Positions 1,607 through 25,619 of a stretch of DNA of 44,791 nt are shown here, in pieces. The stretch covers positions 1 to 44,791 of the forward strand of contig CAYUKX010000002.1 of NCBI GenBank assembly GCA_964445405.1. Reading direction: 5' to 3'. The position numbers were made by a program, and so were the translations under genes. This stretch comes from an uncultured Candidatus Saccharibacteria bacterium. GTDB lineage: Bacteria; Patescibacteriota; Dojkabacteria; J137. How positions within the stretch are numbered: position 1 is the stretch's first letter; the number at the start of each line of letters is the position of its first letter. The notes under the pieces are model-generated. The model made no database searches and was not told the DNA's origin. It worked only from the letters and a program-made list of their open reading frames with translations.

Positions 1607-2872
1607 TTATTTTTGCTTAAGCTGATCTATTTCTTTTTTTAGTTCCATCATTCTGATTTCTCTATCCACCATTAATTTATTGAGTTTTTCGTATTCTGAG
1701 ATTTTTTCTGATAACTGGGAATTACGTTTTACAATATCTGTAATTTCAAATTCGGTAGCGATATAACCTATTAACTTTCCATCTTCGCTTAATGGTGAAA
1801 TATTCACACGAGCAATATATATTTCTCCGTTTTTTCTTCTGTTAACTATCTCTGATGTAAAAGATTTTTTATCATTTTTTATAGTATTCCACATCTCAAT
1901 ATAAAATTCTTTGGTCATAAGTCCGCCCCAAAGTCTAGGTGTGTAGCCAAGCATTTCTTTCAATTTAAATCCTGTTGCTTTTTCAGCAGCTGCATTTGCG
2001 TATAATATTCTACCTTCAGTATCCGTTAATGCTATGTGTGAAGAAAACATATCCGCAGCAAGTTTAAATAACGATTTATCATTTTGCTCATTTAGCAAAT
2101 TTATACGATCAATAAAAATTTGCTTGTGGGCTTTAAATTCATCCATCTGTATTTTATCTGGATTAATATTCTGTTTCTCAAGAATTGAATATACAGAATC
2201 AATCATATCTTCTGGTCCAGATAAATACCAAAGCGCATCGTTAATAGATATATCAAATTCCTCAAGGTTTTTTTCTATAAATCCCCAGTTAAGTTTTTCA
2301 CCTATTAGTTCGTATACTCTATGATTGGGATTTGACTTGACCATCTCTTGAATTTCGTCAGAGTAAACTCTTCGATCATTTGATGCATTGTTAACAAAAA
2401 GTAAGAACTTTCTTTGATTATTTGTATTTGCAGATTCTCTTAACATTGAGATGAATGGAGCAATGCCAACACCGCCTGCTATTAATACAGTTGGGACCAT
2501 AACTTCGGGTAATATAAAAAAGCCTCTTGGTCCGAAAATCGAAAGTTCATCATCCACTTTTAAACTCAAGAGAGTTTTTTTATATCCACTATCTGATTTT
2601 CTAAATACTATTGAAATATTCTTTTTATTATTTTCTCTAGATATAATTGAAAATGCTCTTAAATTGCCCCGCGGATCTTCTTCTATTAAATTCTCAAGTT
2701 CAACCCATAAATATTGGCCTGCTACAAATTCCATTTCTTGATCTAATTCAAGGTCATATTCAAATGTGTTTGGTACTATCTCCTTTATCTTTGTAATTTT
2801 CCCCTTAAAAGAAAGTAGAGCACTTTTATTTACATATTCAAAAACATCTAATTCTCTTAAATAGCTTTCCAT
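1607..2872 (-). CDS. Fusion protein: FNR-like FAD/NAD(P)-binding oxidoreductase module + PAS domain + C-terminal coiled coil
   Basis: The N-terminal half has the ferredoxin-reductase-type pattern (RAFSIIS = RxYS-like FAD motif; LIAGGVGIAPFISMLRE = NAD-binding GGxGxxP). Residues ~265-385 are PAS-like (TDTEGRILYANAAAEKATGFKLKEMLG..NRRKNGEIYIARVNISPL). The tail is K/E-rich and heptad-like. There is a 5-nt gap to the upstream kinase gene. Confidence 0.7.
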   Translation of the reverse strand: MESYLRELDVFEYVNKSALLSFKGKITKIKEIVPNTFEYDLELDQEMEFVAGQYLWVELENLIEEDPRGNLRAFSIISRENNKKNISIVFRKSDSGYKKTLLSLKVDDELSIFGPRGFFILPEVMVPTVLIAGGVGIAPFISMLRESANTNNQRKFLLFVNNASNDRRVYSDEIQEMVKSNPNHRVYELIGEKLNWGFIEKNLEEFDISINDALWYLSGPEDMIDSVYSILEKQNINPDKIQMDEFKAHKQIFIDRINLLNEQNDKSLFKLAADMFSSHIALTDTEGRILYANAAAEKATGFKLKEMLGYTPRLWGGLMTKEFYIEMWNTIKNDKKSFTSEIVNRRKNGEIYIARVNISPLSEDGKLIGYIATEFEITDIVKRNSQLSEKISEYEKLNKLMVDREIRMMELKKEIDQLKQK

Positions 2873-2877
2873 ATTGT

Positions 2878-4965
2878 TTATTTAATAGGTAACTTAATAG
2901 TAAATGTTGTACCCTTGCCTTCTGTAGAAACAAAAGACAATTCACCAGAATGTGCCTCTATAATAGATTTTGTAATATATAACCCAAGACCTGTCCCTTC
3001 TTGTGTCATTGCATTTTTAGCTCTGTAGAATCTTTCAAATATTCTGCTCTGTTCATTCTTAGGTATTCCAAGACCATCATCTGTAATCTCTATGTAAGCG
3101 TATTCATTATCTTTATGCAATTTTATGTTTACATTTCCACCTTCTTTAGAATATTTAATTGCATTAGTTACAACATTCGAAATAGCTTCGGAGATTTTAA
3201 AGTCATCAACTGGAATTTTGTAACTATCTTTTTTATTATATTCATAATTTACTTTGACTTCATCATTGCTAGCAAGCATCTTAGTACCTTCAATAATTTT
3301 TGCAATAAGTTCTACTAAATCATTTCCTTTCTTTTCAATTGTAAAGTTCCTGCCTGTATCAATTCTTGAAACATCTAAAAGTTCTGCAACCAGGTGTATT
3401 AATCTTTCACTTGCCTCGGAAATAAAATTTACACTTGGCAGTATTTCTTTTGGAAGCTCCTTTTTAAAGTCCTCCATTATTTCTGTATGCCATTTTATTG
3501 TAGTTAGTGGAGTTCTTAACTGATGGGAAGCAATCGAAACAAACTCATCTTTCATTTTTTCTATTTGTTTTGTTCTAGTTACATCTTTTATAACAATTAT
3601 GCACTTTTCAACATTACTGTTTTTATCTAAATACGGTGCGCTAGATATACTTACACTTATTTTTTCGTTTTCTTTAGTAAGTAAATAGTATTTGTTTTCT
3701 GAAACTACTACTTCACCTTTATATGTTTCGTCTAAATACTGGGTATAAGGTACTTCCTTTTTCTCCTCTATGATTTTTATTTTGGATGAATAAGCTTTTT
3801 CAAGCAGATCCTCTTGCTTATACTTTGTTAATTTAAGAGCAGCTTTATTAACAATTTTTATATGTTGATGCTTATCTAAAACAATAACTGCATCTGCAAT
3901 GTTTTCAAGTATTGTCTTTGTTTCTTCCTCGCCCTTAGTGGCAATCTTTTTTTGAATATCGATATCTTCAAGCATATTTACCATTGCTCGCTGGTTTAAT
4001 TCCATGTTTTCTTGTTGTTCAGCAAGGTTATTTAATGCCTCTCTAAGCTGGGATTCTGTTTGCTTTATTGGTGAGATATTTTTTGCAGCAAAACTTACTA
4101 ACGTTTGTTCGGATAACTTTATAGGTGAAAGGTTAACAATTACCCAGAATGTTTGGTTGTATGTATCAACTAGTTGCAGTTCCCTTTCTACTTCTACATT
4201 ATTATTAATTACTCTTTCAATATCATTAATAAAAACATTCCTGAACTCCTTGGAGATATACTTAATTATTGACTTTTCGACCAGATCTTTTAGGTATCCT
4301 TCGCCCCAAAAAGCAATTGCATAAGAATTACTAGCTTTAATCTGTAGTCTATTATCCAGCAGAAAATATATATCTTTTCCGGAATTTGCTATGGATATTA
4401 AATAATTTTGTAAAGATTCTAGATACTTGGATTGTTGAATTTGCCTGACTTGAATATAGTAAAGTAAGGCACAAGCAGATATATAAAAAATAACATTAAT
4501 TACTTGTGGTGCAGGTGTTAAAAGGAATGTAATTAAGTAAGTAAGTAAAGCGGTAATAATTATTGCAGCTATCCCTCTTTTTTTTCTAATAGGTAAAATT
4601 AAGAAAATAATAGCTACTAGGTTAATAAATGGTGCTTCAGTATTTTTAAATGAAGTATAAGATATTAATATCAAATTACTAAGGTAAATAAATGCTACAA
4701 GAATATAAAGAAAAGTCTTGAGCATGCTCGCAAAAAACTTATTCAGTAACGACGTAGTAAATACCGCAATGCCGAAAATTAATACAACATTCGCAAGTTT
4801 TAGAAAAACTTGATTAACTTCTGAAGGTTCAATAATTAGTGCCGATATAGCTACATACTGAAGTAAACATACAATTATTACTCCAATTCGAGTGTTGGAT
4901 ACTTCAGATTTAGTCGAAATTTTATAGCTCTTTTCTAAAAAGAAATTCTTTAAGTTATTATTCAT
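2878..4965 (-). CDS. Membrane sensor histidine kinase (multi-TM N-terminus, two PAS-like domains, HisKA, HATPase_c)
   Basis: The first ~175 aa hold about 6 hydrophobic helices. H-box is FVSIASHQLRTPLT. N/G boxes are NAIKYS, DDGLGIP and GTGLGLYITKSIIEAHSG. Confidence 0.85.
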   Translation of the reverse strand: MNNNLKNFFLEKSYKISTKSEVSNTRIGVIIVCLLQYVAISALIIEPSEVNQVFLKLANVVLIFGIAVFTTSLLNKFFASMLKTFLYILVAFIYLSNLILISYTSFKNTEAPFINLVAIIFLILPIRKKRGIAAIIITALLTYLITFLLTPAPQVINVIFYISACALLYYIQVRQIQQSKYLESLQNYLISIANSGKDIYFLLDNRLQIKASNSYAIAFWGEGYLKDLVEKSIIKYISKEFRNVFINDIERVINNNVEVERELQLVDTYNQTFWVIVNLSPIKLSEQTLVSFAAKNISPIKQTESQLREALNNLAEQQENMELNQRAMVNMLEDIDIQKKIATKGEEETKTILENIADAVIVLDKHQHIKIVNKAALKLTKYKQEDLLEKAYSSKIKIIEEKKEVPYTQYLDETYKGEVVVSENKYYLLTKENEKISVSISSAPYLDKNSNVEKCIIVIKDVTRTKQIEKMKDEFVSIASHQLRTPLTTIKWHTEIMEDFKKELPKEILPSVNFISEASERLIHLVAELLDVSRIDTGRNFTIEKKGNDLVELIAKIIEGTKMLASNDEVKVNYEYNKKDSYKIPVDDFKISEAISNVVTNAIKYSKEGGNVNIKLHKDNEYAYIEITDDGLGIPKNEQSRIFERFYRAKNAMTQEGTGLGLYITKSIIEAHSGELSFVSTEGKGTTFTIKLPIK

Positions 4966-5022: not shown

Positions 5023-6135
5023 TTACTGACATTGAATTCCGTTAAGAGTAAAGTTGGAACTCAGTAATGGATTATTTGCTCCAGAATAACTCCCTTGGAA
5101 CCCGAAGGCTTGTGTTCCACCATTTGCCAGAATAATCTGGTTGTATACGGCATCATTTGCCGTTACTGCTGTTCCAGTTTGCGACCAAAGTGTATTCCAG
5201 GCATTAGTTATTACTTGGTTCCCAGTAAAATTCCATAATAAACTCCATGTACTAATATTATTTGCAGATATATTTGTAATTACAACATCGGCATTAAACC
5301 CATTCGCCCATTGACTAGTTATTGTGTAGTTAACTTGACAGTAATTTGAGTTTGGAACCCCTGGGTCTTCAATTACACCATCCAATATTGCGTCACAAGG
5401 GGAGCCATTAACTAAAATTATTGAATCCACAGGTGCATAATTATATCCTGTATAACTTGCTTCAAACCCAAACGTCTGAGACCCACCATCGGCAGCAATT
5501 AATGAATTATAGCCAAGATTAGTACCTGTAAATAAATTACCTGATTGTGACCAACCTGTATTCCATGCGTTCAATATTGTTTGATTCCCTGGAAAATTCC
5601 AAGTTATTGTCCAGCCATTAATATCAGTTGGAGTGTTGTTGGTAATAGTTACATCGGCTGTAAAGCCGTTTAAATATGCATTTGTAATTTTATATAACGC
5701 TGAACAATTCCCAGCTGTCATAATCTCAGGAACTTCGTCCCAAAGTGTGACTATCGTGGAGGGATTCACTGTTGAAATATGAGTATGAACTTTTCTAGTA
5801 ACATTTCTAACAGTGGAGGATGTGTTTATTTCCCGGTTAGTATTACCTGTACCAGTTATATTGTAAATAGTGCAGCTTTCTCCGCTAAAAGATAGAGTTT
5901 CGTTTCCTGTATAAGCAGTATTAAGTTTAAGTTTGTTTATGGCAATTTCGGCACAGCTATGTGCAAGGCTTCTGGCCTCTATAGAAGATAGTGAATTAAA
6001 GCTTGTTGTAAATGAATCATTCGAAACTAATATCGTAGAAGTAATAATCATTGCTGTAGCAATCATCAGTATTAAAACACTAGTTATAGTTGTAAAGCCT
6101 TTCTTTAATTTTTTATCTGAGTGTTGCTGTTGCAT
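5023..6135 (-). CDS. PilX/GspK-like minor pilin carrying two C-terminal CBM2 carbohydrate-binding modules
   Basis: The N-terminus KKGFTTITSVLILMIATAMIITS is a pilin-like hydrophobic helix without Glu5. Residues C144-C247 and C266-C369 each fit the CBM family 2 pattern (C..Y.I...W.NGF.ADV.ITN....I..W...WNF.GNQ.I.NAWN..WSQ.G..........YN..I...GG.Q.FGF..SY.G.N........NG..C). It is the last gene of the pilus operon and overlaps the preceding gene by 23 nt. Confidence 0.8.
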   Translation of the reverse strand: MQQQHSDKKLKKGFTTITSVLILMIATAMIITSTILVSNDSFTTSFNSLSSIEARSLAHSCAEIAINKLKLNTAYTGNETLSFSGESCTIYNITGTGNTNREINTSSTVRNVTRKVHTHISTVNPSTIVTLWDEVPEIMTAGNCSALYKITNAYLNGFTADVTITNNTPTDINGWTITWNFPGNQTILNAWNTGWSQSGNLFTGTNLGYNSLIAADGGSQTFGFEASYTGYNYAPVDSIILVNGSPCDAILDGVIEDPGVPNSNYCQVNYTITSQWANGFNADVVITNISANNISTWSLLWNFTGNQVITNAWNTLWSQTGTAVTANDAVYNQIILANGGTQAFGFQGSYSGANNPLLSSNFTLNGIQCQ

Positions 6136-6625
6136 AAAATGTTTGAGAATAATCCAGAGCTGGTTTCCCGGTTGTATTAATGTATGTTACTGTAATTTCT
6201 ATTCTTACTGACCCTACAGCAAAGTTTTCTGTTACATTTCTGAACGTAAGAGACGAAATAGTTACCCTATTAGAATTTAAAGTATTTGCAGGATTACTAC
6301 CTTCGGTAATGGTTATATTGCCTCCACTTAAAGCTATTCCTGTTGGACTGTTAGCCGCGCTAGCCATGACTAGTGATAGAGTACTTCCGCTATTCCCAAT
6401 TGTAGGTGTATTTACTGCACTTGCATTTCTAATGGTTTGAGTTAGTTTAGAAATTATAGATGTGGCTTCTGAACTAACAATCGACATAGCTTCGCCACGG
6501 TCTCGAGTATCGCTTGCTGTAACCCAAAGCATTGCAATCATTAATACTAGTACAGAAGTCAGTGACATATAAAGCAGAACTTCTATTAGTGTAAATGCTT
6601 TTTTTGTATTTATATTAGTTTTCAT
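6113..6625 (-). CDS. Minor (pseudo)pilin, PulJ/PilW-like, prepilin-type N-terminus
   Basis: N-terminus is MKTNINTKKAFTLIEVLLYMSLTSVLVLMIA (class III signal, Glu at +5). It has a 1-nt overlap with the upstream gene. Confidence 0.8.
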   Translation of the reverse strand: MKTNINTKKAFTLIEVLLYMSLTSVLVLMIAMLWVTASDTRDRGEAMSIVSSEATSIISKLTQTIRNASAVNTPTIGNSGSTLSLVMASAANSPTGIALSGGNITITEGSNPANTLNSNRVTISSLTFRNVTENFAVGSVRIEITVTYINTTGKPALDYSQTFYATATLR

Positions 6626-8022
6626 TAGTTTGGTTTGTAAATCATTACTTCTTGAGTATTATTGCTACCAACACCAAATACTCTGTCTAATAGAGGATTA
6701 TAGAAAACATCATTTAGGTTTCCGGTATAGGCCAAACTTCCAAATACTGTCGGGCTTGCAGCGTTCGTTGCATCATAAATTGTAAGTTGGGTAGAAGTAG
6801 CGTCTGCTTGAAAAATATATGGTAAAGAAACATCACCAGTTATTGATAAGCTTGTTGCTCCCACCGCAAATCCGGCACTATTTAATGCAGTTGGTGCAAG
6901 TGGATTAGTTATACTAGCTAAAGATATTGTTGTTCCCCTTTGCAATGCCACACCTAGAGAGTATCTAGCAATGTCCGCGGCATCTGTGTTCCCGGATAAA
7001 TCTAATCCACTTGCAAAAGCAGGTAGGGCGGGGTTAGATATATCGTATATGGTTAACTCAGCATTATTAGCCGAACTTGCAAGATACGCGTAGTTACCTT
7101 CAACCAAGAGTTTAAATATGTTTGCTGCTATTTGTGCGGATCCAAGCAGTGCAGGCGATGCAGGGTTTGTTAAATCGTAAATATATAATTCTGGATCTGT
7201 ACTTGTAGACCTTGTTAAATAGAGCCTATTGTTAAGAACAAAAACACCATTTGCATTGGCTGTTCCTGGCATGTTCACAGTTACAAGTGTTGGCGCAGTT
7301 GGAACAGTCACATCAACAATGTTTAGTTCATTCGTATTACTAGAAGATGCCAAATACACATAATTACCATAAGCTGCAATATCCGCTAAGGTCCCAGTTA
7401 TGCTTATTGTTCCTTGAATAACAGGTGCTGCTAAATTGCTAACATCAACAACAGTAAAATTACTTGCACTACCTGTTCTTGCAACAAATATTTTGTTCCC
7501 GAATTGAAGAACTTCAACAGCATCGGTTGTTCCTGAAAGGTCAATACCACTTTGCAAAGATACACTAGCCCAAGTTTCGTTTGTGGCTGTAGGTCGTTCC
7601 CAACTTGTAAGTTGAACAGTTGCATCTATTGCCCTAGAACTACTACTATTTTGCCAAGATACTGTAACGGTCACTTGTTTTGTATAGGCATCGATTGTCG
7701 ATATTTGTACCGCACGTGTAAAACCATCAACGGAGTCAGATGTTCCTACAAATGCCCAGGAACCAGCAGATAAACCTAAACCATATGTTCCATTAGTTAA
7801 ATTCGAATATGAATTATCTTTTATACTTGTAACTGCTTCTATTCCTTCCTCTAATAGAAAGTTGGCTTTGTTTTCTAAGTTCGCTTGTGATTGTGCAAAA
7901 ATACCATAAGAAAGTGAACCTGCAAGTGTAACAGCAATAATACTTATTAATGCCAATGCTAAAACTACTTCAACAGTAGAAAATCCTCTTAAGTTTTTAG
8001 AATGTAATTTGACCTTTAGCAT
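6625..8022 (-). CDS. Modular minor pilin: prepilin N-terminus fused to an LVIVD-repeat beta-propeller-like domain
   Basis: N-terminus LRGFSTVEVVLALALISIIAV has Gly -1, Phe +1 and Glu +5. The C-terminal ~315 aa contain repeated GNY(V/A)YLASS..NELNIVDV..P.AP / ELYIYDLTNPASP / ELTIYDISNPALP / QLTIYDATNAASP units, typical of LVIVD repeats (PF08309). Confidence 0.8.
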   Translation of the reverse strand: MLKVKLHSKNLRGFSTVEVVLALALISIIAVTLAGSLSYGIFAQSQANLENKANFLLEEGIEAVTSIKDNSYSNLTNGTYGLGLSAGSWAFVGTSDSVDGFTRAVQISTIDAYTKQVTVTVSWQNSSSSRAIDATVQLTSWERPTATNETWASVSLQSGIDLSGTTDAVEVLQFGNKIFVARTGSASNFTVVDVSNLAAPVIQGTISITGTLADIAAYGNYVYLASSSNTNELNIVDVTVPTAPTLVTVNMPGTANANGVFVLNNRLYLTRSTSTDPELYIYDLTNPASPALLGSAQIAANIFKLLVEGNYAYLASSANNAELTIYDISNPALPAFASGLDLSGNTDAADIARYSLGVALQRGTTISLASITNPLAPTALNSAGFAVGATSLSITGDVSLPYIFQADATSTQLTIYDATNAASPTVFGSLAYTGNLNDVFYNPLLDRVFGVGSNNTQEVMIYKPN

Positions 8023-8449
8023 TTACTGTTATTGTTTTTGTAATACCATTATTAGTTATATTTATAGCTCCAGTTGTATTTGGAGTACCGTGTAGTTTAT
8101 TAAAAACAACTTCAGTAACTCCTGTGACTGTAAAACGATTTCCAATACTCCATGCCCTATCAAATGTTGCATTTCGACCCGTAAAGCTACTGCCAGAAAA
8201 TACAATTACTTCATAGTTTGAAAAAGCTACACCCCAACTAGTATCATAAAACCCATCTTCAGAATAACTCTGTGCCATTTTTAAGCTTTTGTAGTAAATG
8301 TTTACTGCATCATCAATCTCACTTCTGTATAGAAAATTCTGGTACAAAGGGACACTCATGACGAATATTATCGCAATCAAAGACATTGACAATAATAATT
8401 CAAATAAGGTGAATGCTTTCTTTTTATTACTCAATCGGTTCATCATCAA
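7997..8449 (-). CDS. Minor pilin, GspH/FimT-like, prepilin-type N-terminus
   Basis: N-terminus is NKKKAFTLFELLLSMSLIAIIFVMSVPLY. It lies between pilC and the other minor pilins. Confidence 0.8.
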   Translation of the reverse strand: MMMNRLSNKKKAFTLFELLLSMSLIAIIFVMSVPLYQNFLYRSEIDDAVNIYYKSLKMAQSYSEDGFYDTSWGVAFSNYEVIVFSGSSFTGRNATFDRAWSIGNRFTVTGVTEVVFNKLHGTPNTTGAINITNNGITKTITVNAKGQITF

Positions 8450-9659
8450 TTATGATTAAATCTTGTTCAACTGTGGATGGAGTATCCTCAATTAAGTCAG
8501 GGTTATTTATAACATTTTCAGTTGGCGGCTGTTCTATAGATGCTGGTTGAATACCATCTGTCGTTAATGATGATATGTTACCTACAATATTATATAAAGG
8601 TAAAATAACTGCTACTGCAACAAATGCAATTCCCGCCCAAATTATAATTATTAGTATTGGTTCAAATATAACACCAGCGTCTTTCAAACTAACTTCATTT
8701 CTTTTTTCAAAGGTTTCACCTATCAATAAAAAGTTTTCTGGTAGTTTTCCAGTTTTTTCACCAACTATAACCATTTCTCTTGCATATAAAGGAAGCATTC
8801 TTCTAACTCGTTTATCGTTATAGAAGATCTCTGAGAATTTATAACCTTTATCTATTAAAATACCCATATCGGTATATAATTTTTTGTAGCTCCTAAAACT
8901 TGTAGCATTCGCAAGTAATAACAAAGACTCTGATGGCGAAATTCCCGTTTCAAACAAATTATTTAATAAATAACCAAATCTAGTAATTTCTGTTTCCATT
9001 AATACATTCTTCAGAATTGGAACTCTAAATAATATTGAATCACCTATATGTTTAGTTTTCTTATTTATGAATAGTGTATAAATTGTGAATAACAACAAGA
9101 ATATAAATAGTGGAACGGCAATAACGCCATACTTGTCAAAGAAATCGCCTACAGCAATCAATATTTTTGTGATGGTAGGTAATTCAACGTTTAAGCTTTT
9201 ATAAATTGTGGTTAATCTTGGTAATACAAAGCCAACCATTACCATAACTACAATTATTAGTAGAGTTAGTACAAAGCTAGGATACAAACTTGCAGATTTT
9301 ATTTTGTTAGAAAACTCATTATCCCTTTGCAGGTATTTAACAACGGTTTTTAAGTTCTTAGGTAGATTGCCGGTCTGTTCACCAATTTGAATTAATGCTA
9401 TTAAGTGATCACCAATATATTTTTCCTCTTTAAATATTTTCCATAATTGCTCTCCGTTTTCGACTCTAAGCCTTAACTTATTAATTAGTTTTTGAACGTT
9501 GGCAGATTTGGTTTCATGTTCAAGAGATTCAAGTATTGTATCTATATCAATACCTGCTGCAAGCATGTTTGCAATGTTTTCGAATAGGTAATTCTTATAC
9601 TTATTTACATTCAGCTCAATTGTAAAAAGCGAGTTTATTTTTTTTATTAATGAGTTCAT
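8427..9659 (-). CDS. pilC: Type IV pilus platform protein PilC (GspF family)
   Basis: It has two GspF-type half-domains, each with the conserved E.TG.LP motif (IGEQTGNLPKNL; VGEKTGKLPENF), and three hydrophobic helices. It shares an ATGA overlap with pilB. Confidence 0.9.
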   Translation of the reverse strand: MNSLIKKINSLFTIELNVNKYKNYLFENIANMLAAGIDIDTILESLEHETKSANVQKLINKLRLRVENGEQLWKIFKEEKYIGDHLIALIQIGEQTGNLPKNLKTVVKYLQRDNEFSNKIKSASLYPSFVLTLLIIVVMVMVGFVLPRLTTIYKSLNVELPTITKILIAVGDFFDKYGVIAVPLFIFLLLFTIYTLFINKKTKHIGDSILFRVPILKNVLMETEITRFGYLLNNLFETGISPSESLLLLANATSFRSYKKLYTDMGILIDKGYKFSEIFYNDKRVRRMLPLYAREMVIVGEKTGKLPENFLLIGETFEKRNEVSLKDAGVIFEPILIIIIWAGIAFVAVAVILPLYNIVGNISSLTTDGIQPASIEQPPTENVINNPDLIEDTPSTVEQDLIIIDDEPIE

Positions 9660-11347
9660 TTCTTATTTAACTTTCGTAAATTTTTATAAATCATCTTTTT
9701 TTCTATTGCTGGTGCAACTCTAAGTACTTCTTCAATTGTAGTTAGTCCCGCTCTAACTTTATCTAATCCGTCTTCAAAAAAAGATATTGCTCCATTTTCT
9801 TTTGCGACATTCCAAATTTCAGAACTTGAGCTTTTTGTTAGTATCAAACTTTGTAATTCGTCATTAATTTCAATTAATTCAAAGATTCCTATTCTTCCTC
9901 TATATCCTGTAAAATTACATTTCTGACACCCTTTACCAGAGTAAAGTCTTATCTTTTCATCTTTAAAATATTCTTTGCTGTACGGCATTAGCTCTTCTAG
10001 GTCATCATGAGTATATTCATGACTTACTTTACATGAATCGCATATTTTTCTAATAAGTCTTTGAGCAACAATTAGGTTTAAAGTTGATGCCAATAAAAAT
10101 GGCTCAATGCCCATATCAACAAGCCTTGGGATTGCGGTTGCCGCATCGTTAGCATGAAAAGTTGATAGTAATAAGTGTCCAGTTAACGCCGCGTTTACAG
10201 CTATTTCTGCTGTTTCTACATCTCGGATTTCTCCAACTAACATTACATTAGGGTCCTGTCTGACAATTGATCTTAGACCTCTTGCAAAAGTAATTTCGTT
10301 TTCTGCATTTACTTGTATCTGATTAATTCCTGGAATTCTAAACTCAACAGGATCTTCGATTGTAGTTATATTTATTTGGGGGTTTAAAAGAATTTTTATT
10401 ATAGAGTAGAGCGTTGTTGTTTTACCAGAACCTGTTGGGCCGGTTGTTAATATCATTCCGAAAGGTTTTTTATAAGCTTTTTCAAGTTTACTAAAGTTTG
10501 CTTCAGAGAACCCTAAATCCTTAATATTTAGGTTCTTTGTATAATTTGTCAGTATTCTAATTACAATTTTTTGTCCATCTAATACAGGAACAATAGATAC
10601 TCTTAAATCTACAGCGAATTTATCGTTTGAAAATCTAATAGCACCGTCCTGAGTTCTGTACCTTTGGTCAATTCTAATATTAGACATTACTTTTATTCTA
10701 TTTAGAATATTTTCGTAAAGCTGCACCGGAACTTCGCCAACTTCTCTAAGTAATCCATCAACTCTTATACGTAGTAATACTGTTTCTGATTGTGGTTCAA
10801 AATGAATATCTGAAGCTTTTAAATCGTATGCTTCACTAAATAATTCATCTAAAAATTTATTAGTAAAATCTGTCCCACTTTCAAAAATGGTATTAATTCT
10901 ATCCTGAAATGGATCTTTGAATCTTAATAAAATTTCATCAATATCTTCGGTTAGTGAGTAGAAAATTTCAACTTTATATTTTGGTATAACCGTTTCTAAT
11001 AGATCTTTTATTTCCTCAATCTGTTCAACTCTATCTGTGGTAACGCTTATTGAATAGTTATCGACTTTAAATGCTAAAACTCGATTTTCGTTAACTATAT
11101 CTTTTGGAATAATATTCAAAGTATCTTCTTTAATTTCACTTTTTTGAAGATTAAAGTAACCAACTTTAAATGTTTCTGCAATTGAATGCCCAATTATTTC
11201 TTTGCTGAAGAACCTTGCTCCAATTAAGTTATCAATGACTGTGCCTCTAGGGTAATCTGCCAGTGCCTTATTAGTATCTTCTTCGGAAATGTAATTATTA
11301 TCAAGTAGGGACTTAAGAATTTCTGTCTCTGATAGCGTACTTCTCAT
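9656..11347 (-). CDS. pilB: Type IV pilus assembly ATPase PilB (GspE family)
   Basis: Walker A is GPTGSGKTTTLYS. Asp/His boxes are VMLVGEIRD and LLLSTFHANDA. The tetracysteine motif is CDSC...CQKC. A GspE_N-like N-terminal domain is present. Confidence 0.93.
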   Translation of the reverse strand: MRSTLSETEILKSLLDNNYISEEDTNKALADYPRGTVIDNLIGARFFSKEIIGHSIAETFKVGYFNLQKSEIKEDTLNIIPKDIVNENRVLAFKVDNYSISVTTDRVEQIEEIKDLLETVIPKYKVEIFYSLTEDIDEILLRFKDPFQDRINTIFESGTDFTNKFLDELFSEAYDLKASDIHFEPQSETVLLRIRVDGLLREVGEVPVQLYENILNRIKVMSNIRIDQRYRTQDGAIRFSNDKFAVDLRVSIVPVLDGQKIVIRILTNYTKNLNIKDLGFSEANFSKLEKAYKKPFGMILTTGPTGSGKTTTLYSIIKILLNPQINITTIEDPVEFRIPGINQIQVNAENEITFARGLRSIVRQDPNVMLVGEIRDVETAEIAVNAALTGHLLLSTFHANDAATAIPRLVDMGIEPFLLASTLNLIVAQRLIRKICDSCKVSHEYTHDDLEELMPYSKEYFKDEKIRLYSGKGCQKCNFTGYRGRIGIFELIEINDELQSLILTKSSSSEIWNVAKENGAISFFEDGLDKVRAGLTTIEEVLRVAPAIEKKMIYKNLRKLNKK

Positions 11348-11871
11348 TTTTTATCAAAGTAATCTTTTAAAAATTCAACAATTTGTGAAAGTTGAAAATT
11401 TGATTTAATCCAGAAATCTATTGCACCTAAATCTTTTGTTTTTTCGATATCCTCTTCTTGGCTTAAATTAGAAAGTACAATTACTTCTGGAGGGTTCTTT
11501 AGTAGTTTTAGCTCTTTTAGGACTTCAAAACCATCTTTATTAGGCATTAAAAGATCTAATAGGATTAAATCATACTTATTCTCTTTAATCATTTTAATAA
11601 CCTCGTTGCCATCTCTAGCAATATCTATCTGAAACCCAGCGGCCCTTAGCTTTATGCTAAAAGCATTCGTAAGGGATTCTTCGTCTTCTGCAACAAGAAT
11701 TCTATAGGATTTCTTTAATGATTCTTCTTTCTTTTCATCATCTTTTATTTCCTTTTTTACTACAGGTTTCTCGTCAACTTCCACTTCCGGTTCGTTTTCA
11801 AGCATCTCTTTTATGCTTTTTCTAGGCTCTTCTTGTTTCTTTTTATTCTTCCCTAAGTCAGTGAATATCAT
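11344..11871 (-). CDS. Stand-alone CheY-like response-regulator receiver with K/E-rich N-terminal extension
   Basis: Sequence RILVAEDEE ... DLILLDLLMPNKDGFEVLKELK ... VIVLSN ... fits a receiver domain. There is no output domain. It is translationally coupled (ATGA) to pilB. Confidence 0.85.
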   Translation of the reverse strand: MIFTDLGKNKKKQEEPRKSIKEMLENEPEVEVDEKPVVKKEIKDDEKKEESLKKSYRILVAEDEESLTNAFSIKLRAAGFQIDIARDGNEVIKMIKENKYDLILLDLLMPNKDGFEVLKELKLLKNPPEVIVLSNLSQEEDIEKTKDLGAIDFWIKSNFQLSQIVEFLKDYFDKK

Positions 11872-11932: not shown

Positions 11933-12388
11933 CTATCTACTAACACTTATTGTTGCTGACTCTGCGTTTGGTGCAGCTACTGTAACTCTGTTAGATGCCG
12001 CTAAACAAATAGTATATCCAGTGTTTGCAGCAGTCCCACCGGTTGGGTCTTTAGGTATTCCTACTACATAGGTTGGTACAAGCAGTGTTGATAAATCAAT
12101 ATAGTCAGGATCCACTGTCGTTCCAATAATTAGTACATCAGTTGTGCAGTTAGGAATTGTTCCAAAATCACCAATAAGGTTCCCTGATTGTGATGTATAT
12201 TGAGTAACCGCATTTAGAATTTGGGTTACATCAGATCTTCTTTGTGTATTTCTAGCATCCTGAAAATTCTTTGCAGGGTTAATTGCAATAATGGTAATGG
12301 CAGCTAAAAATCCAATTAAAGCAATTACTACAAGAACTTCGATTAATGTGAATGCTTTTTTTGTTTTGTTTGGTTTGTATTCCTTCAT
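11933..12388 (-). CDS. Type IV major pilin, paralog 2
   Basis: N-terminus is KTKKAFTLIEVLVVIALIGFLAAITIIAINP. It is 59 aa identical to the neighbouring paralog and shares the C-terminal ESATISVSR. Confidence 0.9.
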   Translation of the reverse strand: MKEYKPNKTKKAFTLIEVLVVIALIGFLAAITIIAINPAKNFQDARNTQRRSDVTQILNAVTQYTSQSGNLIGDFGTIPNCTTDVLIIGTTVDPDYIDLSTLLVPTYVVGIPKDPTGGTAANTGYTICLAASNRVTVAAPNAESATISVSR

Positions 12389-12406
12389 AATATATTAATA
12401 AATTAA

Positions 12407-12847
12407 TTATCTACTTACTGAAATTGTCGCACTTTCTCCACCAGGAGCCGATACAGTTACTCTTCCTCCAGTAGTTAAACATATATCGTAACCAGTATCT
12501 GTTACAGTACTTATACTTGGATCGTTAGGTATTGCAACAACATATGTTGGTACAAGGTTTGTTCCTAGATTCACCATACCGACTGCAGTTCCAATGTTTG
12601 TAGTCGTAGGGCAAGTTGCAATGGTTCCTAATCCCGATAGGGTGTTGCCTTGTTGAGTTGTATATTGAGTAACCGCATTTAGAATTTGGGTAACATCAGA
12701 TCTTCTTTGAGTATTTCTAGCATCCTGAAAGTTCTTCGCAGGGTTAATAGCAATAATAGTAATAGCAGCTAAAAATCCAATTAAAGCGATTACTACCAGA
12801 ACTTCGATCAGTGTAAATGCTTTTTTCGTTTTATTTCTGTTGTTCAC
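12407..12847 (-). CDS. Type IV major pilin, paralog 1 (GTG start)
   Basis: It has the same prepilin N-terminus and is the first gene of the pilus operon. The start codon at 12845-12847 reads GTG on the minus strand. Confidence 0.9.
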   Translation of the reverse strand: MNNRNKTKKAFTLIEVLVVIALIGFLAAITIIAINPAKNFQDARNTQRRSDVTQILNAVTQYTTQQGNTLSGLGTIATCPTTTNIGTAVGMVNLGTNLVPTYVVAIPNDPSISTVTDTGYDICLTTGGRVTVSAPGGESATISVSR

Positions 12848-12970: not shown

Positions 12971-14443
12971 ATGTTGCAAAAATTAATAATGTCTGATCCA
13001 AAATTTGCTACAAAATTATTAAATAGCAAAGGAAGGAGTGCTGCTTTAAAAGCGTTTAAAGATGCTGCAAAATTACCAGCTTACTTGGAACTTTTGAAAA
13101 CACATAATGTAAGTATTAATGATATTCATTCAGTAGCGGATTTTGTTAAATTACCAATTCTTGATAAAAAAAACTATATTAATGCGTTTCCATTGGAAGA
13201 TCGAATAAAGTTTAAGATGTATAAAAACTATACAATTGAGCGAAGTAGCGGGTATTCAGGTGAGCCAAACTATTGGGTAAGATTTAGCGGACAAGATGAC
13301 GCTACTGAAAAACGAATAGTTGAATTAATAGATAAGATTTTTGAAATAAAAACTAAAAAAACCTTAATGATTAATACTTTTGCAATGGGAACTTGGATTG
13401 CTGGCATTAAGTCGGCTAGATGGTTTTTGAATGCAGCAAACAATAAAGATTTAGATTTAACAGTTGTAAATGTTGGAATCAACCTCGAGGAATCCATTGA
13501 GATTTTCAAAAAGTTCTACAAGCACTACGATCAAACTATATTTATGGGCTACAATCCCTTTTTAAAACAAATTGTAGATAAGATCTCAGGACAATACGAC
13601 CAATCACATGTTGTACATCTTTTAATGGGTGGCGAAGGCTTTTCAGAAGATTGGCGAGACTATATTGCTAATAAATTAGGCTATAGAATTGAAGATTTTA
13701 AGGGGAAAGTAATATCAGGTTATGGTGCAGCGGATATGGGCAATGATATAGGAGTAGAGCAACCGTTTTCTATTATGTTGCGAAGGGCATTTACAAAGAA
13801 GCCTGAGTTAATGAAGAAATATATAGGAGAAGTTGGGGATTTTGTCCCACTAATGTTTCAATATTCTCCTACTAAAGTATTTGTGGAGACAAATGATGCA
13901 CAAGAGCTAATTTTTACTGCAAATAGTGGAGCACCTCTTGTCCGCTATAATTTGCACGATAAAGGCGGTACAATTAGTTATCTTGATGCTTTAAGTATTG
14001 TTGAGGAAGTTTATGGTAAGGATTATGTTAAAAATGTACTTAAGCCTATGCCACTTCCAGTTATCTTCTTGTACGGAAGATCAGACTCAACTATTCATGT
14101 AACTGGCGTTAATATTTATATGGAGCATATTAAGCAGTCAGTCAATAATAGAGATATTAGTGAATATACCACAGGACGATTCTATTGTTTTGTTGAAGAC
14201 GATGAAAATTATAATCAGAGATTTAATATGGTTATAGAAGCAAGAGACGTAAAATTAGCTGAAAACAAAAAATCTGTTATTCAAAAAAATATAACTACAA
14301 CAATAGCAAATCTAAACCAAGAATATAAACATTTATTAGAAACTAACTTCGAGTTGGCAAACCCAGTAATCAACTTCGTTTCAGAAGAGGAATTTGAAAA
14401 ATATAGTAGAAAAAGTATTAAAATAGTTTATAAAAAGAATTGA
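12971..14443 (+). CDS. Adenylate-forming enzyme, PaaK / coenzyme F390 synthetase-like (ANL superfamily)
   Basis: The N-terminal pattern (..DIHSVADFVKLPILDKKNYINAFPLEDR..) and the P-loop-like ERSSGYSGEPNYW at ~residue 90 resemble phenylacetate-CoA-ligase-family proteins (SSG[ST]TG.P). Size is ~490 aa. Confidence 0.55.
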   Translation: MLQKLIMSDPKFATKLLNSKGRSAALKAFKDAAKLPAYLELLKTHNVSINDIHSVADFVKLPILDKKNYINAFPLEDRIKFKMYKNYTIERSSGYSGEPNYWVRFSGQDDATEKRIVELIDKIFEIKTKKTLMINTFAMGTWIAGIKSARWFLNAANNKDLDLTVVNVGINLEESIEIFKKFYKHYDQTIFMGYNPFLKQIVDKISGQYDQSHVVHLLMGGEGFSEDWRDYIANKLGYRIEDFKGKVISGYGAADMGNDIGVEQPFSIMLRRAFTKKPELMKKYIGEVGDFVPLMFQYSPTKVFVETNDAQELIFTANSGAPLVRYNLHDKGGTISYLDALSIVEEVYGKDYVKNVLKPMPLPVIFLYGRSDSTIHVTGVNIYMEHIKQSVNNRDISEYTTGRFYCFVEDDENYNQRFNMVIEARDVKLAENKKSVIQKNITTTIANLNQEYKHLLETNFELANPVINFVSEEEFEKYSRKSIKIVYKKN

Positions 14444-19382: not shown

Positions 19383-21383
19383 ATGAAAGCTACCTTTCTT
19401 TTTGTCTTTATTGTTTTATTGTTTGGCTACAGTTCAAAAATACAAGCTGATACTAATTTAATAGTAAATGAGATTCTTCCTGATGCCACAGGTGCAGATT
19501 CGGGCAAGGAATATGTAGAACTGTATAATATTAGTGATACTGACATTAATCTAAATAATGCATATCTCATAAATACATCCCAGTCAGGTACATCTAAAAA
19601 AATACTATTACCATCAAGTAAAATATCCGCAAAATCTTATTTCGTTTTTTCTGAGGATCTAAGCTTATTACAAATTAGTAATGGGTTATCACTTGGTAGT
19701 GGAAAAATAGCTTTATACAACGACTTTGCAAAACTTGAACTTTATAATGAAAATGTAATTCTACATGCAGTTAATTACGGAGATTCTAAAGAGGGTATTT
19801 CGTGGGAACTTGATGGCCCAGTCTGTAATAATTTACAATATTCGCAACAAAACAGCGCTGGAGTTTTTAATTCGGTAGGTGCTCAAAATTGCTTTGAAGT
19901 TGTCGAATCTGTTGTTTCTTATCCTGAAGTAAGTATTGCACAACCACTCATAAAATTTTCTTTAGATGGAGTAGTCTGGAGTGATACTATTTCCACATTT
20001 ATTAATAGGGATGTTTATTTTAAATATATAACAGATACAAATTCAGTGCCAAATTCAGTTATATGGTCAGATGCTTATGGAAACGTTATTACATCCCCTT
20101 ATAAATTTAGTTCCGTTTATAACAAAGGGCTAAGTGTAGAAATTGACTACAATAGTCAGTCTGTACAAGCCAAGAGTTTTGATATAAATATTGAAAATAA
20201 TATTTCTAATAAAGTTTTAATAACTGAAGCTTATCCTAGTCCTGATACCGGAGATAGTGAATGGATAGAATTGTACAATAATGATGTTATGACAGTTGAT
20301 TTAGCAAACTATATTCTTGAAGAAAAAAGTTCTAGTGGAGTTACAAATAGACGAATACCAATTGGAAGTTTTTTGCTGGCACCGAAGTCCTATTATGTAA
20401 TTTATGAAGAGGATTTTAATATTAGCCTAAACAATTCAGGAGATGAAATTTACTTAATTGATATTAATAATAATCAAATTGATAAATTCATTTACAAGCA
20501 AGTTCCTAATTCACAATCAGTAGGGCGGAAACTTAACGAAGAGTCTTTCAGTAATGAAACATTTGAATCATTCAGTCCTACACCAAATAAGCCAAATGTA
20601 TTTGGTGAATCTTCAAAACCTGTTTTGACGTATCAATCCCTAGGCAACATTAGCTCGCTTGAAGTAGGGAGTGAGTTCTTATTTAATGTAAATATTGTTA
20701 GCTTTATTGATAGGTATATTTTTATTCAAGATAGTAGTGCAACAATTAAGGCTAAACTTACTGTTCCACTTGAGAGTGATCTTATAAACACATACGTACA
20801 GTTAACTGCAAAAGTAATTAACTTAAACGGTTCAATCAACTTAGAAATTAACCCAGAGAATATTAAGGTGCTTGATTACCTTAACCTTACTCCGTCAATT
20901 ATTTCTGAATTATTACCAACTACTGATTCAATTGGAAGATTAGTGAGTTTTACAGGTGTTATAGACCAAGTATACGACAATCGTGTTAAGGTAAAACTAC
21001 AAGACCAATTGTTTAATGTTTACTTTAATACTCCTGTAAATACTCTTATCATTAAAAAAGGTTCTACAATAAATGTTACAGGCGTTATTGATTACTACAG
21101 AGCATCATACAGAATCATTGCAAATGAATACACTATTCCTGAAGTATTATCAGAATCAATTAGTGTAAGTTATCCAGTATCGTATTTAACTAAAGCAAGC
21201 TCATTAATACCGCAAAGTTACCCTGAAGATAATTCTCGTATTTATTTAGTAGCCTTTGGATATGTTGCACTGCTCTTTATTTTTGTTATTGAAATAGTAA
21301 ATAATAGAAAGTATTTAATTAAAAGATTCAACAAGATAAAAAGTAAAATAAAAATATTTAACAGACCCATGATAAAATATTAG
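19383..21383 (+). CDS. Secreted protein with two lamin-tail domains (LTD), OB-fold-like C-terminal repeats and a C-terminal anchor
   Basis: Signal peptide is MKATFLFVFIVLLFGYSSKIQA. LTD signatures are LIVNEILPDATGADSGKEYVELYNISDTDINL and VLITEAYPSPDTGDSEWIELYNNDVMTVDL. The C-terminus reads IPQSYPEDN + TM + K/R tail. Confidence 0.75.
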   Translation: MKATFLFVFIVLLFGYSSKIQADTNLIVNEILPDATGADSGKEYVELYNISDTDINLNNAYLINTSQSGTSKKILLPSSKISAKSYFVFSEDLSLLQISNGLSLGSGKIALYNDFAKLELYNENVILHAVNYGDSKEGISWELDGPVCNNLQYSQQNSAGVFNSVGAQNCFEVVESVVSYPEVSIAQPLIKFSLDGVVWSDTISTFINRDVYFKYITDTNSVPNSVIWSDAYGNVITSPYKFSSVYNKGLSVEIDYNSQSVQAKSFDINIENNISNKVLITEAYPSPDTGDSEWIELYNNDVMTVDLANYILEEKSSSGVTNRRIPIGSFLLAPKSYYVIYEEDFNISLNNSGDEIYLIDINNNQIDKFIYKQVPNSQSVGRKLNEESFSNETFESFSPTPNKPNVFGESSKPVLTYQSLGNISSLEVGSEFLFNVNIVSFIDRYIFIQDSSATIKAKLTVPLESDLINTYVQLTAKVINLNGSINLEINPENIKVLDYLNLTPSIISELLPTTDSIGRLVSFTGVIDQVYDNRVKVKLQDQLFNVYFNTPVNTLIIKKGSTINVTGVIDYYRASYRIIANEYTIPEVLSESISVSYPVSYLTKASSLIPQSYPEDNSRIYLVAFGYVALLFIFVIEIVNNRKYLIKRFNKIKSKIKIFNRPMIKY

Positions 21384-24290: not shown

Positions 24291-25457
24291 TTAGTTTTTT
24301 CGTCGGTATTTAGTTCCTATTAAATTTGCGACTATATCTTCTCCTATTTGAAATCTAAAAGTGATTATTGCAATTAAAATAAATATAAATCCTATAAATA
24401 CCAACCCTATACCATCGCCTAACGCTGTGTTTGGTAGAGCGTTGTTATTAGTAGAATTTGCTGTATTTGATGTTGGTATTGCACAAGAGTGTTTTGATAA
24501 TAATGCAAATGTGTTGGTGTTGCCTGTGGTGTTGCTTGTATTATAAGTTACAGTTGTACTAGAATTTGTTCCATTCTGAAATGTAGATAATTTTTCTTTA
24601 GGAATTTTAAGTTCATAAGTAACTGTTTTAGTTTGATTCGCAGTATAAGTTCTAGCAGCCGAACTTTCTGCCCACGTAATTTTATTACCAGCAGTAGTAC
24701 CAGTGTTGCTTACATTTAAAGGGGTAATTCCATTCGTAACTAATGTATTGTCAAATGTTTCTTCAACTTTTGTTATAGTTCCACTAACGGTGCTTATATT
24801 TGTAATACTAATTGTATACTTTATTAATGCATCACCTGAAGTTTCGCATGTGGCTGCGTAAGAGTTAGTAATTCTAAATTGTGGCTCAGCTAGCTGAGTT
24901 GTACCATTATTCGTATTATTATTTGTCCCAGTATTATTACCGGTATTCGAGTTTGTGTTTCCAGTCTGTGGAAATGAAGCAGGGAATGAGGCAGGAAAAG
25001 ATACTGGCGCAGTTGTTCCTGTGCAAGCAGTATTAAATTTTTTTATTGTAGTTCCGCATGCTCCTAGGGAATTTACACCAGATGTTTCAAGCTCTAAATA
25101 CATTTGAACCGTACCGCAAGTGACACCACCTAAATAGCTATTAAGGTTAACTGATCCACCTGAAGCAACTGGACTAATTGGAATTTCGATTGGATTACTT
25201 GAAATACATTTTTCATTGTCACGCTTTAATTCATTACAAAAGTGAATGTAAACTTTTGATGGATTACATACCCCTGACGGTATTGTACATGTGTTAGTAG
25301 TATTATTGCAGTTTGCAAGTATTGGATTTGTTTGTGCTCCTGTTTGACTTTGTAGGTTATTGTTATTAATCACTGAGCTGATTAATATACTTACCCCAGC
25401 CAATACTACAGTGGCAATAATAAGAATTGCGATTAGCAGTTTTCTATTCTTAGTCAT
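24291..25457 (-). CDS. Surface protein paralogous at both termini to the 776-aa protein; N/T-rich linker and DUF11-like domain
   Basis: I prefer the start at Met15 of the tracked ORF because MTKNRKLLIAILIIATVVLAGVSI parallels MSNRKKITLAILIFLTVILAGVSI next door. A DUF11-like pattern is present (GDALIKYTISITN.S..SGTITKVEETFD...KITW). The C-terminus is LPNTALGDG + TM + basic tail. Confidence 0.75.
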   Translation of the reverse strand: MTKNRKLLIAILIIATVVLAGVSILISSVINNNNLQSQTGAQTNPILANCNNTTNTCTIPSGVCNPSKVYIHFCNELKRDNEKCISSNPIEIPISPVASGGSVNLNSYLGGVTCGTVQMYLELETSGVNSLGACGTTIKKFNTACTGTTAPVSFPASFPASFPQTGNTNSNTGNNTGTNNNTNNGTTQLAEPQFRITNSYAATCETSGDALIKYTISITNISTVSGTITKVEETFDNTLVTNGITPLNVSNTGTTAGNKITWAESSAARTYTANQTKTVTYELKIPKEKLSTFQNGTNSSTTVTYNTSNTTGNTNTFALLSKHSCAIPTSNTANSTNNNALPNTALGDGIGLVFIGFIFILIAIITFRFQIGEDIVANLIGTKYRRKN

Positions 25458-25619
25458 TATTTTATGTTTAAACTCAACATAGTATTGCAGAAATTGCATT
25501 GAGTGTCAAAGCTCATTAAATACTGCTACAAAGGATTACACAGCCTATTTCAAATCAAAATTTGTAAATTGGGCTAAAACCGTATTTATTGTTAAAATTA
25601 CTTAATTTAAGTAATCAAA

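Follow-up and report, generated by a model that had tools for sequence, protein, structure and literature searches.

A predicted GspK/PilX-like minor pilin with two CBM2a-type modules closes a pilus operon in a likely relative of Candidatus Dojkabacteria

The locus

The stretch of DNA analysed here, referred to as the window (44.8 kb; positions 1 to 44,791 of contig CAYUKX010000002.1), carries a co-directional pilus gene cluster on its reverse strand, and the last gene of this cluster encodes a 370-aa protein that ends in two carbohydrate-binding modules of family 2 (CBM2). We consider it highly probable that this protein is a modular minor pilin, in which a pilin module is followed by two modules of the CBM2a type. 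The named relatives of the protein belong to Candidatus Dojkabacteria and Candidatus Kerfeldbacteria, and the organism is therefore likely a member of the candidate phyla radiation (CPR), in agreement with the small-genome organism supposed in the first-pass annotation of this DNA. The features of the protein and of its operon are listed below.

5023..6135, reverse strand: candidate 370-aa modular minor pilin (pilin module plus two CBM2a modules); ATG start; open reading frame (ORF) list, Pfam and AlphaFold2
6097..6135, reverse strand: predicted class III (prepilin) leader, aa 1-13 (MQQQHSDKKLKKG), with predicted cleavage between G13 and F14; invariant G13 and family motif
5731..6096, reverse strand: mature pilin module, aa 14-135, with conserved C61 and C88; AlphaFold2 and family alignment
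5707..5730, reverse strand: short linker, aa 136-143 (EVPEIMTAGN region); drop of the model confidence score (pLDDT) between structured units
5395..5706, reverse strand: CBM2a module 1, aa 144-247 (C144 to C247), with Y154, W191, Y209 and Gly157; Pfam, phmmer against the PDB and residue mapping
5341..5394, reverse strand: inter-module linker, aa 248-265 (DAILDGVIEDPGVPNSNY); low pLDDT at 257-261
5029..5340, reverse strand: CBM2a module 2, aa 266-369 (C266 to C369), with W276, W313, Y331 and Gly279; Pfam, pLDDT >90 and residue mapping
6113..6625, reverse strand: 170-aa minor pilin, J-type; N_methyl 8.5e-5, weak NCBIfam matches to ComGF (4.8e-4) and GspJ (0.055)
6625..8022, reverse strand: 465-aa minor pilin, I-type, with LVIVD beta-propeller; LVIVD 1.1e-20, Beta_propel 3.5e-9, weak matches to ComGE (1.4e-5) and XpsI (6.5e-4)
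7997..8449, reverse strand: 150-aa minor pilin, H-type; N_methyl 2.7e-5, weak NCBIfam match to ComGD (1.8e-4) over aa 10-140
8427..9659, reverse strand: PilC/GspF-type platform protein; Pfam T2SSF 5.6e-39
9656..11347, reverse strand: PilB/GspE-type assembly ATPase; Pfam T2SSE 2.8e-120, MshEN 1.1e-6
11933..12847, reverse strand: two candidate major pilin genes, 151 aa and 146 aa (11933-12388 and 12407-12847); N_methyl 3.1e-7 and 6.2e-7, IV_pilin_GFxxxE 1.8e-6

The order of genes in the cluster is two N_methyl pilins, a receiver-domain (REC) protein, PilB (T2SSE), PilC (T2SSF), the pilins of 150, 465 and 170 aa, and finally the CBM2 pilin, and the Pfam model N_methyl is matched by the five other pilins of the operon. 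The first-pass annotation had rightly placed the gene at the end of a pilus operon. The last 23 nt of the gene for the 170-aa pilin are shared with the beginning of the CBM2 pilin gene (6113-6135), and an overlap of exactly this length is found in two divergent relatives (L001 2095-2117; L005 2386-2408), which suggests a conserved translational coupling of the two genes. Identical or nearly identical proteins occur on several independent contigs obtained from different samples and with different assemblers. The G+C content at third codon positions (GC3) is 0.23-0.28 in the CBM2-encoding part and 0.20-0.25 in the neighbouring genes; since the modules do not differ from their surroundings in this respect, the fusion appears to be old and native to the genome. 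The independent contigs, the conserved overlap and the host-like GC3 together rule out an assembly chimera or an artefact of recent horizontal gene transfer. A scan of the operon for promoters and terminators returned fewer matches than were found in shuffled sequences.

The full-length AlphaFold2 model (pLDDT 85.7) consists of three separately folded units, comprising residues 12-135, 144-252 and 266-370; its inter-domain geometry is unreliable (pTM score 0.49) and the linkers are of low confidence. These units fill the whole protein and thus leave no space for a catalytic domain, and besides the two CBM2 stretches Pfam recognised no further domain in the 370-aa protein. Similarly, no glycoside hydrolase is encoded among the approximately 40 ORFs of the window.

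Two modules of the CBM2a type

The whole protein matches the Pfam model CBM_2 (PF00553) in two stretches with E=9.2e-50, and when the modules were scanned alone the E-values were 2.2e-27 for module 1 (95.8 bits) and 1.1e-25 for module 2 (90.4 bits), at a gathering cut-off of 24 bits and with both modules covering profile positions 1-101 of 101. Each module is 104 aa long and bounded Cys to Cys. The limits proposed in the first-pass annotation, nt 5395-5706 and 5029-5340, proved exact (aa 144-247 and 266-369), and its description of two CBM2 modules without a hydrolase also holds, as the remainder of the protein is otherwise accounted for.

Among solved structures, a phmmer search of PDB sequences found the closest relatives in EngD of C. 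cellulovorans (3NDY, 7e-21) and Cex of C. fimi (1EXG, 1e-16). The Foldseek comparison of the predicted model gave a TM-score of 0.92 and a root-mean-square deviation of 1.5 Å with EngD (3NDY_E), and a TM-score of 0.91 with the cellulose-binding domain of Cex (6QFS 0.91; 1EXG 0.82). The chitin-binding CBM2 of Chi18aC from S. coelicolor (2RTT) was a weaker match in the sequence search and also appeared in the fold search.

Cellulose is bound in Cex by a flat strip of three aromatics, W17, W54 and W72; a strictly conserved Gly located three residues after W17 keeps this Trp coplanar, and replacement of the Gly by Arg yields a xylan binder (PMC5935602, citing Nagy 1998 and Simpson 2000). The equivalent aromatic positions are occupied by Y154, W191 and Y209 in module 1 and by W276, W313 and Y331 in module 2, and the Gly by G157 and G279, respectively. 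The conservation of the three binding-face aromatics, which the first-pass annotation had proposed to check on an AlphaFold model, was thus confirmed for each module. All three aromatic positions, the Gly at +3 and the terminal Cys pair are kept in eight of eight pilin-borne modules (38-70% identity), i.e., those of the window protein and of three related fusions (P0002-P0004) described below. The pilin-borne modules also have in common a 2-residue insertion before the last strand, which is absent from enzyme-borne modules, and the inter-module linker is conserved in P0002-P0004 as well. The xylan-binding CBM2b subtype was considered and ruled out, as both modules possess three aromatics and the Gly typical of 2a. 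By their sequences, the modules are type-A, CBM2a-like, with crystalline cellulose as the predicted ligand and chitin as the main alternative.

The N-terminal pilin module

The protein starts with a short basic leader ending in Gly, MQQQHSDKKLKKG, which is followed by about 20 hydrophobic residues at the predicted start of the mature protein (FTTITSVLILMIATAMIITS); the string KKGFTTITSVLILMIATAMIITS corresponds to residues 11-33. Gly13 is invariant in the family alignment A1, and position +5 after it is occupied by Thr18 instead of Glu, as the first-pass annotation had recognised when it described a helix of the PilX/GspK type without Glu5.

The use of residues 1-143 as a query revealed proteins of 136-149 aa whose alignments extend over the full length, indicating that the N-terminal region constitutes a complete protein in relatives. 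These bare orthologues end around residue 140, at the pilin/CBM2 linker, and the CBM2 modules follow an 8-residue linker, which fits the concept of modular pilins invoked in the first-pass annotation. The family of this N-domain comprised 69 clusters in the profile search, and an index-free search found 3,117 representatives at E<=1e-3 and 1,216 at E<=1e-10, with a median length of 138 aa. Absences in the word-indexed search should be treated with caution, as with residues 1-143 it missed P0001-P0003, which are 65-100% identical, and the index-free search recovered P0002. The few named members belong to Ca. Dojkabacteria and Ca. Kerfeldbacteria, and two carry the JGI label PulK.

In every locus retrieved (L001, L003, L004 and L005/L006), the gene comes fourth among the minor pilins of a cassette of constant order, in which PilB and PilC are followed by an N_methyl pilin of about 150 aa, an LVIVD pilin of about 465 aa, a pilin of about 170 aa and the gene in question. 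In L003 and L004 this fourth slot is taken by bare orthologues of 136-141 aa, and in L004 a Peptidase_A24 gene lies directly after the orthologue. The three upstream pilins of the window show weak NCBIfam matches to ComGD, ComGE/XpsI and ComGF/GspJ, in that order. The order H-I-J is that of the com and gsp operons, which places the CBM2 pilin gene in the K/ComGG slot.

Among 207 family members, Gly is found at -1 in at least 154, with most of the other -1 sites being one-residue mis-registrations of the crude motif finder; the +1 position is Phe or Tyr, and not one of the 207 has Glu at +5. The leader of these proteins is short (median 12 residues) and, on balance, positively charged. The absence of Glu5 is the rule for tip-most minor pilins of the GspK/PilX type, hence its absence here favours the K type and is not evidence against a pilin.

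AlphaFold2 run on an alignment of 70 sequences predicted a lollipop fold (pLDDT 88.5), in which a single helix (residues 9-71) lies against an antiparallel sheet of five strands. Apart from chains of the minor pilin PilA of S. sanguinis (7O5Y), no natural protein reached a Foldseek probability >0.8 to this model, and the E-values were short of statistical significance; the pseudopilin EpsI (2RET) was also among the matches. When the 70 members were scanned singly, 13 matched the NCBIfam model T2SS_GspK (best 2.2e-4), four matched Pfam PilX_N (best 3.5e-5) and three matched ComGG_2 (best 0.027), all below the curated cut-offs; no competing family recurs among the hidden Markov model (HMM) matches of these members. 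Synteny, motif statistics, the predicted lollipop fold and the weak HMM matches at the family level support the assignment of the N-terminal module to Glu5-less K-type minor pilins, and thereby uphold the PilX/GspK-like N-terminus suggested at first.

Distribution and evolution of the fusion

A search with the full protein gave 63 CBM2-containing matches, and only four clusters among them have the pilin N-terminus. P0001 is the window protein itself, present in NCBI and ENA, and P0002 and P0003 are 70% and 65% identical to it. P0004 is 39% identical and corresponds to MCA9387245.1 of Ca. Dojkabacteria, annotated by NCBI as "cellulose binding domain-containing protein". The search for further pilin-CBM2 fusions advised in the first-pass annotation therefore yielded P0002, P0003 and P0004. 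The other 59 matches are cellulases, enzymes of glycoside hydrolase families GH12, GH6 and GH5, lytic polysaccharide monooxygenases (AA10) and similar proteins, with Sec/Tat-type N-termini or represented by fragments, and no pilin-type N-terminus was hidden in any of the 59.

The architecture of P0004 (L005 2386-3576; L006 2164-3354) is different, as its tandem CBM2 cassette lies inside the pilin domain and not at the C-terminus. The insertion site is the hairpin loop that corresponds to TGTGNTNR in the window protein, the cassette is flanked by Gly-rich linkers, and the second CBM2 is followed by the two final strands of the pilin. When 67 CBM2 modules were placed in a neighbour-joining tree, the eight pilin-borne ones grouped together to the exclusion of all others. 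The carrier domains of the window lineage and P0004 are distant from each other, with P0004 ranking only 150th of 212 in closeness to the window carrier, and the nearest carrier relatives of the window lineage outside its own group are bare. Both trees were built from distances and lack support values, and the branch leading to P0004 is long. The combination of an exclusive module clade with distant carriers suggests that the cassette was moved between orthologous tip-pilin genes or was lost many times.

A far-reaching version of this scenario would be that a tandem CBM2a cassette of single origin was grafted at two sites, the C-terminus and the loop used in P0004, on K-type pilins of distant Dojkabacteria, turning the pilus into a grappling hook for cellulose or chitin; taken as a whole it is a tentative proposal, which we judge possible but rather unlikely. 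If true, two-site grafting would imply either mobility of the cassette or convergent selection for the display of CBM2 at the pilus tip. It would also mean that an enzyme-poor, ultra-small bacterium settles on polymer particles and feeds on the true degraders, either on what they release by hydrolysis or on their cells, i.e., that CPR bacteria possess an attachment strategy directed at the substrate rather than at the host.

Other modules are grafted on the same carrier family. P0277 combines the carrier with a Ser-rich linker and a C-type lectin, P0246 with Big_5 and F5/8-type-C (discoidin) domains, and P0195 has an insertion of about 290 aa at the same loop as P0004. About 3% of the top 216 members of the carrier family are modular. 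Judged by these predicted architectures, lectin-like modules have been grafted repeatedly onto the carrier tip pilin.

Other genes of the neighbourhood

A receiver-only response regulator (11344-11871, reverse strand) is encoded between the major pilin genes and pilB. On the 3' side of the CBM2 pilin gene, after a gap of 57 nt, there are genes for a PAS histidine kinase (2878-4965, reverse strand) and a protein with PAS and NAD-binding domains (1607-2872, reverse strand), both of which are kept in L001. The response regulator and the PAS proteins may provide a dedicated sensory control of the pilus. At the P0004 locus, a gene with a TfoX_N domain (competence regulator family) is located two genes downstream of the CBM2 pilin (L005 4143-4481; L006 3921-4259) and is absent from the equivalent place in the window. 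By analogy with the chitin-induced competence of Vibrio, this neighbour hints at a link between the pilus of that locus and DNA uptake. Elsewhere, the window encodes a 666-aa protein with two lamin-tail domains (LTD; 19383-21383, forward strand), two tandem signal peptidase I genes (38644-39923, forward strand), and large ORFs with no Pfam match at 21891-24221 (776 aa), 12971-14443 (490 aa) and 24291-25499 (402 aa).

Proposed function and its alternatives

The explanation that we favour, and hold to be fairly probable, is that a CPR relative of Candidatus Dojkabacteria builds a simple pilus, type IV or Com-like, in which the protein serves as a K-type modular minor pilin equivalent to GspK, PilX or ComGG, and that the CBM2a modules of the protein act as a tip tether. 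Prepilin peptidase would cleave the protein after Gly13, between G13 and F14, and the Glu5-less module would then form, with the H-, I- and J-type minor pilins, a four-pilin priming complex that later caps the pilus. We infer this role from the conserved H-I-J-K gene order and from the established models of the type II secretion system (T2SS), the type IVa pilus and the Com pilus. The filament below the cap would consist of the major pilins (11933-12388 and/or 12407-12847) assembled by PilB and PilC. The two CBM2a modules would extend from the distal end of the pilus, connected by short and flexible linkers; their modular arrangement is that of the predicted model, and the placement of the protein at the tip, which by analogy seems probable to us, resembles the Com pilus model, in which ComGG caps the filament with its C-terminal tail protruding from the tip (PMC12153270), and the predicted tip exposure of modular pilins (PMC8179133). 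The cap would display two different putative adhesive modules, namely the CBM2 tandem and the LVIVD β-propeller of the neighbouring I-type pilin.

The flat strips of three aromatics, together with the 2a Gly, would bind crystalline surfaces of beta-1,4-glycans, cellulose in the first place and chitin in the second, with the tandem arrangement adding avidity. The pilus may in this way tether an enzyme-poor, ultra-small cell to lignocellulose or chitin particles, close to polymer-degrading partners or hosts and to soluble products. Settling on polymer particles is plausible, and Dojkabacteria are CPR bacteria for which some carbohydrate-degrading potential has been predicted in anaerobic digesters (PMC7038595). 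As to the physiological ligand, we lean slightly towards crystalline cellulose or chitin encountered as a substrate rather than towards a glycan of the host surface.

Several observations weigh against this explanation. Residues 1-143 match no Pfam model at E<=10, N_methyl (PF07963/TIGR02532) and PilX_N included, and of the HMM matches named in the first-pass annotation, CBM_2 was therefore obtained and the two pilin models were not, as far as the window protein itself is concerned. The protein likewise has no match to the NCBIfam pilin models, GspK and ComGG included, the profile of the 70-sequence N-domain family returned only noise from PDB sequences, and the Foldseek matches of the N-domain are not statistically significant (best E=0.3; pilins approximately 0.3-0.5). 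No gene for a prepilin peptidase, PilT or PilM/N/O was found in the 44.8-kb window. The tip location is extrapolated from distant systems. Regarding the ligand, the first and third aromatics of module 1 are Tyr and not Trp, and the specificity of CBM2 cannot be read from sequence with certainty, the chitin-binding 2RTT being among the matches as well.

These points leave room for different views of what the protein binds and where it resides. The same tip pilin could be an episymbiont adhesin, whose CBM2s recognise a surface glycan of a host microbe, such as a wall polysaccharide, a cellulose- or chitin-like biofilm matrix, or fungal or algal walls. All cultivated CPR bacteria are episymbionts, the lectin-like minor pilin PilX2 of TM7x promotes host binding via cell-wall glycans (PMC11623550), other members of the carrier family have C-type lectin and discoidin modules that are typical of cell-surface glycan recognition, and some CBM2 members bind chitin, as the match to 2RTT recalls. 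On the other hand, a canonical type-A CBM2a with a planar strip and Gly suits flat crystalline surfaces and not heterogeneous wall glycans, and the nearest relatives of the modules belong to cellulases, GH12, GH6, GH5 and AA10 enzymes; we consider the host-glycan adhesin unlikely, although it retains appreciable weight. It is also conceivable that the protein, although processed like a pilin, remains confined to the membrane or to a short pseudopilus, a T2SS- or Com-like structure that just crosses the envelope, and that the CBM2s anchor the cell surface to cellulose. The locus is indeed a minimal, Com-like one (one ATPase, one platform protein, four minor pilins and the major pilins), no PilT/PilMNO gene is seen in the window or in L003, and the minor pilins match ComG and Gsp pseudopilins in the HMM searches. 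However, Com pili are true extended filaments capped by ComGD-GF-GE-GG (PMC12153270), pili of CPR bacteria have been observed by tomography (PMC11623550), and two major pilin genes are present, all of which makes a retained pseudopilus improbable.

A cellulose-binding protein that has nothing to do with pili, possesses no catalytic domain and is secreted or tethered to the membrane by an ordinary Sec signal peptide or anchor would agree with the lack of a direct pilin HMM match and with the name under which NCBI lists P0004, which refers to cellulose binding only. Nevertheless, the 135-aa N-terminal region is, according to the alignment and the AlphaFold2 model, a conserved folded domain and not a signal peptide, and in relatives it is encoded by a gene of its own that consistently takes the fourth minor-pilin position in pilus operons. 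Moreover, the Gly-Phe/Tyr motif precedes an uncharged hydrophobic stretch of about 21 residues that continues as one helix of about 60 residues, and the 59 remaining CBM2 matches have visibly different Sec/Tat-type N-termini or are fragments. A protein of this kind is thus very improbable.

Comparison with known systems

Modular pilins were surveyed by Raynaud et al. 2021 (PMC8179133), who distinguished 264 architectures among more than 1,200 proteins; several include carbohydrate-binding modules, and CPR phyla figure prominently in the examples. Their Dataset S1 lists the combination IPR012902-IPR001919 (pilin motif plus CBM2) for three proteins (PMC8179133). The window protein has the pilin module, the linker and the extra domain of their definition and lacks the strict IPR012902 criterion. 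A carrier without an IPR012902/N_methyl signature would consequently be missed by a survey of that type.

In S. sanguinis, PilC is an experimentally proven glycan-binding lectin pilin (Shahin et al. 2023, PMC9934059). The modular pilins of this species (PilB with a vWA domain; PilC with a ConA-like lectin) are built like the window protein, from a small pilin module and a C-terminal binding module joined via a short linker; they are predicted or modelled at the pilus tip, as proposed here, and their PilA-PilB-PilC cap resembles the proposed cap with two adhesive modules. The differences lie in the graft, which in the window protein is a tandem of type-A CBM2a predicted to bind crystalline polysaccharide rather than soluble host glycans, and in the carrier, a predicted K-type pilin without Glu5 that belongs to a likely CPR bacterium.

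A closer counterpart with respect to the organism is Nanosynbacter lyticus TM7x, in which efficient binding to the host depends on PilX2, a pilin whose signal peptide is non-canonical (Grossman et al., PMC11623550). PilX1 and PilX2 are the largest minor pilins of TM7x and have C-terminal domains that resemble carbohydrate-binding ones, namely an L-type-lectin-like domain and a beta-propeller; the window likewise encodes two modular pilins, with LVIVD and the CBM2 tandem. The 465-aa LVIVD pilin, the second modular pilin of the cassette, is kept at all related loci and may have analogues in PilX2 of TM7x and in the Falkowbacteria pilin with IPR013211 repeats reported by Raynaud et al. The modules of TM7x are recognisable only by structure search and are suspected to bind rhamnose-containing wall glycans, whereas those of the window protein are sequence-canonical CBMs with a well-defined ligand class. 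The lectin-like pilins of TM7x (PMC11623550) and the catalogued pilin plus CBM2 architecture (three proteins, Raynaud et al. 2021) reduce the novelty implied by the first-pass annotation.

With GspK, PilX and ComGG the window protein shares the fourth position in an H-I-J-K cassette, a class III-type leader without Glu5 and the predicted role of a filament cap, although the similarity to these families is weak and seen at the family level (best 2.2e-4 for GspK and 3.5e-5 for PilX_N, in other members). Classical GspK contains a large alpha-helical insertion domain, known from the GspK-I-J structure. The pilin module of the window protein, with about 120 mature residues, lacks this insertion.

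In comparison with the CBM2a of Cex/Xyn10A (1EXG) and EngD (3NDY), the modules are predicted to have the same fold (TM-scores of 0.82-0.92 for the models), a similar length of about 100 residues, the terminal disulfide, the three aromatics and the Gly; they differ in being carried by a pilin and not by a catalytic domain, and in having Tyr for Trp at one or two positions of the strip. Attachment to cellulose or xylan by pili has been described for Caldicellulosiruptor bescii PilA (bioRxiv 10.1101/614800) and Ruminococcus pili (PMC3672088). In contrast to the window case, the polymer is there bound by the major pilin or by separate tapirin proteins, no CBM is located on a pilin, and the organisms are strongly cellulolytic.

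Concluding remarks

The fusion is a clear but not unprecedented case of sugar-binding modules grafted on pilins and does not represent a new kind of system. Its particular points are the sequence-canonical tandem of CBM2a, a K-type carrier invisible to N_methyl-based surveys and the CPR host. At the level of the family, the analysis adds two graft sites and exchangeable lectin modules on one carrier pilin of about 135 aa, which may serve as a natural example of the "tinkering" model of modular pilins and possibly as a scaffold for engineered pilus display.

Little is known about how ultra-small CPR bacteria locate and hold their hosts or substrates, and the few experimental data favour type IV pili with lectin-like minor pilins. 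The graft on the CPR tip pilin proposed here belongs to one of the best-understood families of carbohydrate-binding modules, which translates into a specific and testable prediction of the ligand, based on six named aromatic residues. In ecological terms, the finding suggests that Dojkabacteria may attach to polymer particles.

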